From assembly GCA_050248615.1 (NCBI GenBank), contig JBFWSA010000028.1, positions 1 through 30,243 of the forward strand: a DNA stretch of 30,243 nt. Direction: 5' to 3'. Below are positions 16,001-18,328 of the stretch, piece by piece. The position numbers were made by a program, and so were the translations under genes. The notes beneath the pieces were generated by a model. That model was not told the DNA's origin, did not search any database, and was given only the letters and a program-made list of their open reading frames with translations. Origin of the DNA: Simkaniaceae bacterium. GTDB taxonomy: Bacteria; Chlamydiota; Chlamydiia; Chlamydiales; Simkaniaceae. Each line of letters begins with the position of its first letter. The first letter of the stretch is position 1.

Positions 16001-17795
16001 TGAAGAAACCGTTAGACAAACAAATATTGCAAGAGCTGTATGTAATTTACCCCCAAAACCGCCAAAAGATCCCAAACCGTTTTTCATAGATAAGGCTCTT
16101 GGTAAAGCCTCTGATGTACTTACTGATATTGGTGTTGAAAGTATTAATGTCAATATGCCAATAATGGCAACCTCTTCACCAAAAACAATCGAAGGCTACC
16201 ACGAAAGGCAGATGGAGAAAGCTGCCAGTGGCTTACCAACAGATGTTGTCTTAGGTCATGCAGGTCCAGAGGGTGTAACATGGAAAAATCCAAAGCCGAT
16301 TACTCCTCCACAGATTGAAGATCCTCCCTCAATTGGTTATTTATTAACTCCAAGCCCACAAAGACCATTAATAGGTTCTTTTGGGGGAGAGTGGAATTGG
16401 CAGAGCTTCCAGGTTTATCAGAAAGCTTTGACGATGGCTGTAGTTGAACAGGCTATAGCAGATAGGAATATGGTTCTTTCTTCTCATATGCCATTAGATT
16501 TAAGCGATCCAAATAGGGCAATAGAATCAGCTCATAAAGAAATATGGGAGCAAGGCTTTCTTGATAACAGTACAGTAATGAAGCTTCCGTCAATGCAACA
16601 AGCTGGATTTGACCTCTTCGATGTAAATATAGAAGATGGTAGGAGTCTCCATCTATTGATAGACAATGACTTTGTTAAGAGTATTCCTAAAGGGTTAGGT
16701 AGAGTAGGTATAGCTACCTTAAAATTTCTTGTTCCTAATATGTCAGATGTTTCTGGTGCTGAAGATCCCCATGCTCAACTTGATAGACTAGCTCAAAATG
16801 TAGGGAGAATGTATGACGAAATGGTTCATATGGAGGATCCTAATTCCTTTGCAGCAAAAGCAGGAACGCTGGTTGGGGAGTGCCTAGCTGTTAGTCCTGT
16901 ATTTAAAATCGTTCGATTAGCTCAGTTACCAGGGGTATTTTGTGCTATTGCAGAGGGATCTACAGTAGGAGCTATTTTTGCACAGGCGGATAATCAAAGC
17001 CCATTAGAAGGTGCTCTTATTGGAGGAGCTCTTGGTGGAGGGGTGCATAAACTTGTAGGGCTTTTTCAGTTTTCAAGAGGTGGTGCTCTTTCTTCTTTGA
17101 TGAATCGAGCTCAGCCAATAGAAAATAGGATGCTTCAGCCACTTAAAAGTGAAGCAGCTTTTCTACGTGGGATGAATCCTCAGGTATATAGGAGTGGTTT
17201 TGTTGGTGAGGGGACTGTTGCACGTCTTACAGATCGACAAATAAGGGAGATCACTCCTTTAAAGTTGCCTTCTGTTCAAGTTGGTGAAGAGCTTAATTGG
17301 TTATCTCACAACTTGCCTAAAGTGAGACAACTTCAACAAGTAAAAGGGATGGATAGGTTTGATCAGTATTTAAGACAAACATTCAAAGATCAAAATCTTA
17401 CCGAAATGCAATTACGACGGGTTTTAAATTATTCAGGATTCAACACCTATCCTAAGCCTTTACCAAGCCCAATAAATGTTGTTGTTGAAATTTCTAAAAG
17501 TAATGGAGGAATGATTTACAGACTAGCGGGAACAACCGATAAACAAAATTTAGTGGTCAGGGTATGTCCTGGTCTTGCAAAAGAAAGCATCGTTTCGTCT
17601 GTACTAAAGGGCAATCACCTCAATGGAAAGATGATGAACGGCACGTTGAGACAACAATATCCTTATGTGGTTCAGAGGAGAGGTAAAGAGATTTTAACTC
17701 AAGATGGTAGATGGCTTGAGATGGACAGATTAAGTAATAAGGATAAAGCTTTAACTCATATACCATTAGAAATATACGAATTTAAGGGATGGTAG
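13095..17795 (+). CDS. Large multidomain effector / polymorphic toxin: OTU-like deubiquitinase domain, coiled coil, glycine zipper, C-terminal THIP-motif (Ntox30-like) putative nuclease
   Basis: TRGDGACALHAL (D277/C280), FWFNTQEIELGALLF (W496) and IHFNGVNHF (H547); K/E/Q-rich coiled coil; GALIGGALGGG; C-terminal GGMIY..VRVCPG..QQYPYVVQRRG..LTQDG..THIPL. Confidence 0.7.
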   Translation: MSTNQVTRREKLNLYLFYQTSSCLSPTHASIAALGQIRLRISRDAQKQAVLERDNRNEIESSSFFHPGYQKNDVRFQQIFSQIFAEVRGEEGLVHKTAYLLVERLEHNLYSDVYSEEIRTTGRGVEYDDVTDVIREATKVIKEDLKAILRKNLGFQWELLRLLRKTNRKIPEGLKLTDGNWYWYSKRADYGERPQDYMHFALSWLTLGAIDFTSTVFSEKLKTIYSQLLAIEWFKEDQKRLWEYLGQNLQIERCVSIPQETFEFNGITYSQLYTRGDGACALHALIGENTQGVFQYQSSTKAVDEQGVRSYFAKALTTAMKRTYNPSLQQALVETLKSHLDAALTGENPSSNRLFAVDAQGFEILRYWEAFKNHYNQRIQAIQNQEAKLWVSHLGNEAFMRKIMSEVQSQRRDSPLYRKPQAAVLQMIRKKPSRLLNLINAEPNAFLRIVEDDRITRLRGAQKGCNLERDGVLQQFVLSDPVYNHYIQGIQDEQFWFNTQEIELGALLFNKKLLLVGEGASGIEPFARVNESLTGSPVVIHFNGVNHFSRCLPRREDAPPDLNELKDLYFNYFQAQQRGKAYWERDIIAQQAFYSAFKQEVCDLGMSSAWSYATVNPIPLFTQSVKSTVNLATLYFDPFRDNLLTNVVRSVPISQIAMGVSPEVIITSLSVDIGVRALWEHEKRDKGVESGEGVKRLMVTAVTGMILRDEDRMMSGLFSDAVSIGMDKAHYYVQGVDLQDEYWMQNPSWKDCGVRTLFTHSTLQDHVAGKLKDFADEITGDNPPVINLEVQEHLKTLQDAKASVEPDLIQLNAGVAEAQRKVEEKWSNYQKIVNNKKSSVKDIDKALDSLDRAHQNLRHFKELRDNLQAYINGLSAKMVGLGDRLYSPIEEQDFLNRVADFQVLSERERALEQQRNQQILSEKEAVEKKAKAERDAAYKKMQAEWWKIWKLGLGHGPACDVYQEAKAKYEETVRQTNIARAVCNLPPKPPKDPKPFFIDKALGKASDVLTDIGVESINVNMPIMATSSPKTIEGYHERQMEKAASGLPTDVVLGHAGPEGVTWKNPKPITPPQIEDPPSIGYLLTPSPQRPLIGSFGGEWNWQSFQVYQKALTMAVVEQAIADRNMVLSSHMPLDLSDPNRAIESAHKEIWEQGFLDNSTVMKLPSMQQAGFDLFDVNIEDGRSLHLLIDNDFVKSIPKGLGRVGIATLKFLVPNMSDVSGAEDPHAQLDRLAQNVGRMYDEMVHMEDPNSFAAKAGTLVGECLAVSPVFKIVRLAQLPGVFCAIAEGSTVGAIFAQADNQSPLEGALIGGALGGGVHKLVGLFQFSRGGALSSLMNRAQPIENRMLQPLKSEAAFLRGMNPQVYRSGFVGEGTVARLTDRQIREITPLKLPSVQVGEELNWLSHNLPKVRQLQQVKGMDRFDQYLRQTFKDQNLTEMQLRRVLNYSGFNTYPKPLPSPINVVVEISKSNGGMIYRLAGTTDKQNLVVRVCPGLAKESIVSSVLKGNHLNGKMMNGTLRQQYPYVVQRRGKEILTQDGRWLEMDRLSNKDKALTHIPLEIYEFKGW
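15536..16548 (+). repeat. Copy 1 of a ~1.0-kb diverged direct repeat, inside the large gene
   Basis: Runs TGTCGCTGAGGCTCAACGG to AAAGAAATATGGG; colinear with 18920-19932, offset 3384 bp at both ends. Confidence 0.95.
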
Positions 17796-17797
17796 CC

Positions 17798-18328
17798 ATG
17801 GTTTCAAATCACGAAAAAATGACAGAGAAAGAAAAACAAGAGCATAGAGATTTTTACCCTCCTTTTATAGCTGAAAAAATTATCGAACTAAACGAAAATA
17901 GAGACATAAATAAAGAGGTACCAACTAAGATTACAGACTTTTACCCCCTTTACACGGCAATTTGGAAAATCTCTAACAAAGCCTACCAAGAGGAATATTG
18001 GGGAAAACTGGGTCAGTGGGGAGACAATTTTGGTGAGACAATAGAAACATTTAGGATGGATTGCGAGGCTGTATTGGATACTAGTGATTACGCTGTTGAA
18101 ATGACTCCTAAACAAAGGGAAATGTTGCAAAAGCTTTTACGAATTGTTGAAGATTACTCAGGAGACACTACCACACCTTTAAGCCGATACGGTGAAAACG
18201 ATCAAGCGATCATAAATGATCCAAGATGGCAGGAGATTGGAAAGTACGCCAGAAAGGTATATGAAGAACTTTCTGGGGATGATTTAGATGCATGGGAGAA
18301 AACAATCATGACAAAAAACAATACCTAA
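17798..18328 (+). CDS. Putative immunity protein (SCO4402-like)
   Basis: Starts 2 bp after the upstream stop (alternative ATG 17789 overlaps it). Acidic and helical-looking; ISNKAYQEEYW..DNFGE and IINDPRWQEI...A resemble SCO4402-like proteins. Confidence 0.6.
   Translation: MVSNHEKMTEKEKQEHRDFYPPFIAEKIIELNENRDINKEVPTKITDFYPLYTAIWKISNKAYQEEYWGKLGQWGDNFGETIETFRMDCEAVLDTSDYAVEMTPKQREMLQKLLRIVEDYSGDTTTPLSRYGENDQAIINDPRWQEIGKYARKVYEELSGDDLDAWEKTIMTKNNT

Follow-up and report, generated by a model that had tools for sequence, protein, structure and literature searches.

The 30,243-nucleotide contig of a Simkaniaceae bacterium analyzed here (GenBank GCA_050248615.1, JBFWSA010000028.1; hereafter the window, contig C28 of a 2.04-Mb genome that is 96% complete) carries a locus that probably encodes a polymorphic toxin, a reading to which we assign a probability of about 0.6. 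Judged from sequence and predicted structure, the locus would comprise a large carrier protein with an exchangeable, PT7-like and likely nucleolytic C-terminal domain (the tip), followed by an overlapping gene for an acidic protein (the partner) that is predicted to bind and block the tip (Table 1). This reading builds on the observed gene order and its conservation, on tip exchange, orphan cassettes and purifying selection, and on the homology of the two proteins to PT7 and to the SCO4402/DUF7945 family. Polymorphic toxins as a class are already known, also in chlamydiae; what is new is a sister clade of PT7 that has no domain model, has a changed site and is spread over about one fifth of the sampled chlamydial genomes on unnamed carriers.

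The coupling of tip and partner extends well beyond the window. A preliminary description of the sequence placed the start of the next open reading frame (ORF) at the carrier stop codon and regarded the two genes as a toxin tip with a coupled immunity-like gene, and both points are borne out. The partner ORF overlaps the carrier stop codon by 7 nt, with a second in-frame ATG at position 17798, and a partner lies within 67 nt downstream in 35 of 37 sampled tips (about every fourth of 150 listed of 184 tip matches, leaving out the genome of the window), the other two being one tip at a contig end and one without a partner. In loci centered on the partner, a tip or tip fragment lies upstream in 27 of 30. 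Of 400 Chlamydiota genomes scored, leaving one further genome aside, 92 match the tip profile and 80 match that of the partner, with tip matches in 19 of the 34 genomes of the family of the window (f1), 25 of 69 in f7, 33 of 90 in f9, 1 of 46 in f6 and 0 of 29 in f4. In related genomes, tip-partner units are repeated in tandem, partner genes form arrays with as many as seven members or are fused into doubles, and some partner genes stand alone. Both components are under purifying selection, with a median ratio of nonsynonymous to synonymous substitution rates (dN/dS) of 0.23 for tips (45 pairs) and 0.225 for partners (38 pairs), the pairs not being independent. Tip and partner distances are correlated (Mantel r 0.74 over 64 pairs, best shuffle 0.11), but this is not counted as co-evolution because it is expected of any adjacent co-inherited genes. 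N-terminally extended partners accompany 13 of 13 tips with a long loop and 4 of 51 short tips, a match treated as a single event because the 13 cases probably form one clade. Nine RNA runs contain small shares of the carrier gene and four of them yield contigs over pieces of carrier, tip and partner, data that cannot show transcription.

Tips are exchanged on a constant N-terminus, which is joined to different C-terminal domains. The N-terminal domain of the carrier occurs in 7 of 300 genomes, all within f1, and a word-indexed search with residues 35-260 returned only the protein itself; the carrier as a whole has no Pfam or NCBIfam match above cut-off. Of eight further carriers sampled with this N-terminus, two have a PT7-like tip, one has an EndoU tip (PF14436, 33.5 bits) and five have two other unnamed tips, and each alternative tip has its own, different small gene behind it. 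In the rest of the phylum, most tips form the C-terminus of TPR proteins about 700 residues long (among 120 listed of 437 matches). The genome of the window encodes two paralogues of the carrier. On contig C35, a second full carrier with a tip-partner pair precedes a small gene and a tip, both unrelated, and then an orphan copy of the pair; on contig C12, a third carrier ends in a different tip and is accompanied by an orphan tip-partner cassette, the orphan tip matching no solved toxin.

Several of these loci present features of their own. On C35 (L001 5413-7015, G000:C35), an orphan tip has a weak PBECR3 match (E 0.005), and the next gene combines a weak colicin-immunity match (E 0.001) with a zinc ribbon. 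The C12 carrier (L002 2070-5723, G000:C12) has 1217 residues and a compact OTU-like domain at its very N-terminus, and a HigA-like gene lies behind its orphan cassette. A further tip family, unnamed and paired with a 118-residue partner of its own, recurs in L086, L087, L088 and L090, without Pfam matches above cut-off for those scanned. At least 10 carrier N-termini and 13 tip matches were found in a single 2-Mb genome (G034:C4; L081, L082, L086-L089, L092, L093), with three kinds of tip and several carriers beside transposases.

These loci resemble Rhs, CDI and MafB polymorphic toxin loci in that tips vary on a constant N-terminus, an immunity gene adjoins the tip, and orphan pairs occur downstream, as do poly-immunity arrays. 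They differ in that the carrier has no Rhs, FilH, PAAR, LXG or MafB domain; chlamydial carriers either are TPR proteins or have an N-terminal domain restricted to one family, and some include an OTU-like insert. The many copies per genome, exemplified by the 13 tip matches of G034, their frequent position beside transposases and the HigA-like gene behind the C12 locus would also suit a toxin-antitoxin or abortive-infection module that acts within the cell and spreads selfishly without ever reaching another one. Such a module is nonetheless very improbable, given that the tip is invariably found at the end of a large carrier or of an orphan cassette and is exchanged for other tips, that its relatives end Rhs and CDI-type proteins, and that the gene order is toxin first and immunity second.

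The tip is a conserved domain. The five C-terminal motifs listed in the preliminary description were located in the 1566-residue ORF at residues 1471 (GGMIY), 1488 (VRVCPG), 1520 (QQYPYV), 1534 (LTQDG) and 1554 (THIPL), the last containing H1555. The C-terminal 164 residues (1403-1566) have 64 homologues at E<=0.001 among 1.84 billion cluster representatives, with the match at the protein's own C-terminus in nearly all of them; among named contigs, the tip is borne by one Simkaniaceae and one Chlamydiota assembly. In 47 aligned tips, the only invariant columns are R1489, Q1520, Y1524 and H1555, and a larger alignment of 180 segments from 182 proteins, picked by similarity to the chlamydial clade, retains Arg in 177 of 177, Gln in 174 of 175, and Tyr and His in 175 of 175 each. 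The position of C1491 is held by Met in 156, Cys in 15 and Gln in 2 of 176 segments. With this many homologues and invariant columns, tip and partner are not chance features. The AlphaFold2 model of the tip (mean pLDDT 84) consists of three helices followed by a small beta-rich core of six short strands and two short helices, interrupted by a low-confidence loop insertion of about 20 residues. Pfam gave nothing above cut-off for 27 and 14 aligned tips, and a phage collection held no tip match at E<=1. An SH3 identity, indicated by ESM atlas scores of 0.90-0.91, was not accepted, with about 100 of 256 features shared and the other clusters unnamed.

Fold and profile comparisons both relate the tip to PT7(Bc), its nearest characterized relative and the toxin of the PT7(Bc)-PIM7(Bc) pair of Bacillus cereus (PDB 8OWU; bioRxiv 10.1101/2021.10.19.465003; PMC13675652). 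Among 48,161 solved chains, the best structural match in VIA-align is 8OWU_C (Z 5.9, root-mean-square deviation 3.0, 72 of 76 residues, 21% identity), which is also the only chain in the top 30 to cover the tip core, the other top matches fitting the leading helices only. A tip-only profile of 27 sequences finds 8OWU_B at E=0.0073, and a 14-sequence profile that includes bridging sequences has 8OWU_B as its best match at E=0.0023. These bridging sequences come from a search of 72,556 plasmids with a short chlamydial tip, which returned seven records (four from Leptospira interrogans, at 45% identity, and one each from Cronobacter, Janthinobacterium and Ochrobactrum), and from a search with the Cronobacter tip, part of a VENN/CDI-type locus, which added two Streptomyces Rhs proteins. 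The Cronobacter, Janthinobacterium, Ochrobactrum and Streptomyces tips (hereafter D/H-type) read R-x-D, then D-H-V, then H-I-P, like PT7, whereas in chlamydial and Leptospira tips Met or Cys replaces the first Asp, and Tyr replaces the His. Profile-profile comparison unites these two groups with 96.4% probability (E 1.2e-9), as opposed to 0.2% and 0.0% in crossed controls. The nuclease-like identity proposed in the preliminary description is supported by this homology. Tip and PT7 share a small beta-rich C-terminal toxin core, an Arg two residues before the D37 position and a terminal H-I-P, and in both systems a basic toxin precedes a downstream gene for an acidic immunity protein, as stated for PT7(Bc)-PIM7(Bc) in the available text of the preprint (bioRxiv 2021.10.19.465003). 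The tip has an extra Gln-Gln motif and a loop insertion, the partner is all-alpha and SCO4402-like whereas PIM7 has an alpha1-betaA loop, and PT7 has been reported on LXG carriers in Firmicutes and Proteobacteria, with no mention of chlamydiae in the available text of the same preprint.

The predicted active site sets the chlamydial clade apart. When the numbering of PT7 is deduced from the D37A-H47 spacing, R35, D37, H47 and H73 of PT7 correspond to R1489, C1491, Y1524 and H1555; one tip-only profile alignment puts H47 one residue earlier, on a Pro, and His is present in neither register. Judging by these sequences, the tip belongs to a sister clade of PT7 and not to PT7 itself, because two defining residues, D37 and H47, fail despite shared descent. 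PT7 is an EDTA-sensitive, Mg-dependent endo-DNase whose D37A and H47A mutants lose toxicity in cells and keep activity in vitro (bioRxiv 2021.10.19.465003), and the wild-type enzyme is reported to degrade ribosomal RNA too (PMC13675652). Since both residues whose mutation ends PT7 toxicity in vivo are replaced, activity cannot be transferred from PT7 to the tip; since the same mutants stay active in vitro, neither residue is strictly needed for cutting. A catalytically inactive or non-nuclease descendant of PT7, which would bind a nucleic acid or protein target and thereby poison or regulate it, with the partner as chaperone or inhibitor, is an improbable account of the tip. The replacement of D37 by Met, Cys or Gln and of H47 by Tyr in 175 of 175 segments, together with the lack of a conserved acidic residue in the predicted site, would fit such a descendant, but Arg, Gln, Tyr and His remain fixed while most other columns vary, a pattern that suits a catalytic set, and the in vitro cutting by the PT7 mutants also speaks against it.

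The preliminary description had assigned the tip to a variant of Ntox30, a family defined by a THIP end, an RxH motif and a beta-rich fold in the text available of Zhang et al. (2012; PMC3482391). This label is not supported. Terminal THIP is present (residues 1554-1557), and the predicted beta-rich core and the position in a polymorphic toxin would also fit, but R-V-C stands in place of RxH, the Ntox30 hidden Markov model (PF15532) has no match in the genome of the window at E<=10 and does not appear when the 27 and 14 aligned tips are compared with Pfam, and chlamydiae lie outside the range listed for Ntox30 in that text. A search with PF15532 over the 400 genomes found none and is not counted, having had no responding positive control. 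Ntox10 was rejected, its model covering only residues 4-99 of a Leptospira homologue, ahead of the tip; that homologue, on a Leptospira interrogans plasmid (L036 4683-5261), is annotated as Ntox10, its tip is of the Met/Tyr kind seen in chlamydiae, and an SCO4402-like gene lies behind it. Compared by description only, the D/H-type superfamily may have been named Ntox12 earlier: in PMC3482391, Ntox12 is all-beta, has D, D and H residues, occurs in chlamydiae and is linked to an OTU-type protease, a description that fits the D/H-type relatives of the tip. The chlamydial clade lacks both aspartates, and Imm32, the immunity protein of Ntox12, is described as alpha+beta whereas the partner is predicted all-alpha.

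The likeness of the partner to SCO4402-like proteins, already noted in the preliminary description, is a distant homology. Against the SCO4402 family model (NF047838), the partner scores E=5.2e-4 and 20.2 bits over profile positions 12-118 of 119, under the curated cut-off of 50; two partner paralogues on C35 reach 32.6 and 35.2 bits, 55 of 75 members of the partner family match at E<=1 (best 4.7e-8), and hhalign aligns partner and SCO4402 families over 104 columns with 68.8% probability (E 4.5e-5). The partner has about 40 extra N-terminal residues. True members of the family, by contrast, lie directly behind D/H-type tips: the genes behind the Cronobacter and Janthinobacterium tips and the two Streptomyces tips all pass the SCO4402 cut-off (142, 128, 60.7 and 50.1 bits; 4 of 4), those behind the Cronobacter and Janthinobacterium tips also pass that of DUF7945 (PF25656), and the gene behind a Leptospira tip scores 27.7 bits against the SCO4402 model. 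Because SCO4402-type genes follow the bridging tips, the toxin superfamily and the partner family travel together across four phyla. DUF7945 gave no match to the partner in the Pfam scan, and Pfam had nothing above cut-off (among the best 25 of 82 families listed in one scan). The partner structure is predicted as all-alpha (pLDDT 90), VIA-align finding generic helical bundles only (best Z 6.1), and 8OWU is not among the listed results of the partner fold searches. Partner homologues (79 proteins matched) are named as Simkaniaceae, Neptunochlamydia, other Chlamydiota and four Ca. Kentrum records. The latter (P0017, P0040, P0043, P0059), labeled as Gammaproteobacteria and 56-68% identical, may reflect transfer or chlamydial DNA in the assemblies. 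A tip fragment followed by a weakly SCO4402-like gene (E 0.003) was also seen on a plasmid of Ca. Bandiella, a ciliate endosymbiont (L042 3941-4728).

Several observations weigh against the reading of the locus as a polymorphic toxin. Taken by single scores, the link to PT7 is modest, as a Z of 5.9 lies in the common range of the tool; single-sequence searches with the tip fail to find 8OWU, and Foldseek returned nothing at E<=0.001 for the tip or, likewise, for the partner. D37 and H47 of the PT7 catalytic pocket are both replaced. The partner falls below the SCO4402 cut-off, and its profile has no match to 8OWU, making it unlike PIM7 in sequence. Neither VipB, the sheath protein of type VI secretion, in the 96%-complete genome, nor a known antibacterial delivery domain on the carrier, in Pfam and NCBIfam scans, was found. 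An OTU-like segment and neighboring RING genes are typical of host-directed effectors, and PT7 itself is described in the literature as toxic to yeast and fungi.

Under the polymorphic toxin reading, the carrier would be exported, most plausibly by type III secretion, a gene for the export gate being present in the genome and the carrier N-terminus being rich in Ser, Thr and Pro. The basic tip would then cut DNA, RNA or both, using a remodeled and perhaps metal-free Arg-Gln-Tyr-His site instead of the Asp/His site of PT7. As in metal-free RNases generally, such a set of residues could act as acid, base and phosphate clamp. The partner would cover the active site of the tip as an acidic mimic of nucleic acid, and the most likely target would be a bacterium sharing the host cell, either a related chlamydia or a different one, a bacterial rival being favored because genomes keep arrays of spare partner genes.

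The same nuclease and antidote might alternatively be aimed at the eukaryotic host, the carrier being a type III effector with an OTU-like deubiquitinase and the partner protecting the producer before export. Cys and His motifs of the OTU-like segment (residues 262-555 approximately; C280 and H547) are kept in five related proteins, although its best ESM atlas match, 0.89, falls under the 0.9 line of the tool, OTU being found in 15% of cluster members, and Pfam gives no match. RING-finger genes with a hydrophobic C-terminus, candidate ubiquitin-ligase effectors, adjoin or lie near four carrier loci; Simkania encodes many deubiquitinases, according to the available text of PMC10643670; and the type III export gate and the killing of yeast and fungi by PT7 would suit a host target equally. 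Self-protection alone, on the other hand, does not need partner arrays, orphan cassettes or stand-alone partners, the OTU-like motifs are absent from several carriers with the same tip (L034, L035, L082), and the long carriers found are mostly TPR proteins near 700 residues in length (among the matches listed), making a host target rather unlikely. A stand-alone 640-residue protein on another contig (L003 2221-4143, G000:C21), 28% identical to carrier residues 261-559, matches PF02338 at E=0.12, has a hydrophobic C-terminus and is a candidate deubiquitinase.

The preliminary description considered a nuclease-immunity pair unusual for an obligate intracellular lineage, which can be upheld only in part. 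According to Zhang et al. (2012; PMC3482391), intracellular bacteria mostly lack immunity genes and are generally taken to direct their toxins against the host, but chlamydiae appear there among the bearers of several families of toxins and immunity proteins, and a URI toxin accompanied by an immunity gene is noted in Simkania. A literature search for Simkaniaceae together with polymorphic toxins found no paper, nor was one found naming SCO4402 or DUF7945, subscription journals being mostly outside the search. The polymorphic toxin reading would offer a testable role for a domain pair without a Pfam model and a first proposed function, toxin immunity, for SCO4402/DUF7945. The exchange of tips and the surplus immunity genes kept in arrays suggest conflict among chlamydiae themselves or between them and other symbionts. 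A chlamydial symbiont protects amoebae from Legionella by means that PMC6520448 describes as unresolved, with polymorphic toxins suggested, and the tip-partner pair would be a candidate class for such protection. The change from Asp and His to Met or Cys and Tyr would further provide a natural test of a nuclease fold changing its chemistry. In a tentative and, at present, rather doubtful extension, environmental chlamydiae would share a phylum-wide interbacterial weapon used inside their hosts, in which lineage-specific carriers, some of them also acting as OTU-type host effectors, deliver into rival bacteria a PT7-derived, metal-free Arg-Gln-Tyr-His nuclease with SCO4402/DUF7945 as the immunity family of the toxin superfamily.

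Table 1. Features of the toxin locus and its surroundings (positions in the window unless another locus is named).
Feature	Position	Strand	Basis or remark
Carrier protein, 1566 residues, ending in a toxin-like domain	13095..17795	+	ORF call
Constant N-terminal domain, residues about 35-260	13197..13874	+	common to carriers whose tips differ; not assigned to a known family
OTU-like segment of putative papain fold, present in some carriers, with C280 and H547 as candidate residues (lead only)	13878..14759	+	motifs in five related proteins
Three-helix segment ahead of the toxin core	17301..17444	+	AlphaFold2 helices, model residues 5-44
PT7-like toxin core, residues 1457-1566, isoelectric point 9.7	17463..17792	+	alignment, fold, profile
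Predicted immunity protein (partner), 179 residues, all-alpha, isoelectric point 4.7	17789..18328	+	distant SCO4402/DUF7945 relative, N-terminally extended
RING-H2 zinc-finger gene directly behind the partner	18338..18904	+	PF13639, 37.6 bits, cut-off 27.3
RING genes at other carrier loci	L001 1884-2627; L002 1371-1970; L034 3951-4481 (before carrier)		
Tip-less carrier remnant, ending at a genome-wide repeat	18909..20066	+	86% DNA identity to 15525-16565 (carrier middle)

Downstream of the RING-H2 gene, the last 100 residues of the carrier remnant are 70% identical to the C12 carrier, and because its end resembles that carrier the remnant looks like the leftover of a replaced or deleted cassette. 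The repeat at its end (20046-20105) is about 50 bp long and has 56 matches over 26 contigs, often in nearby inverted pairs, in the manner of miniature inverted-repeat transposable elements or repetitive extragenic palindromes. On the minus strand, positions 20089-22836 encode a 915-residue protein without a Pfam match, possibly a lineage-specific effector.

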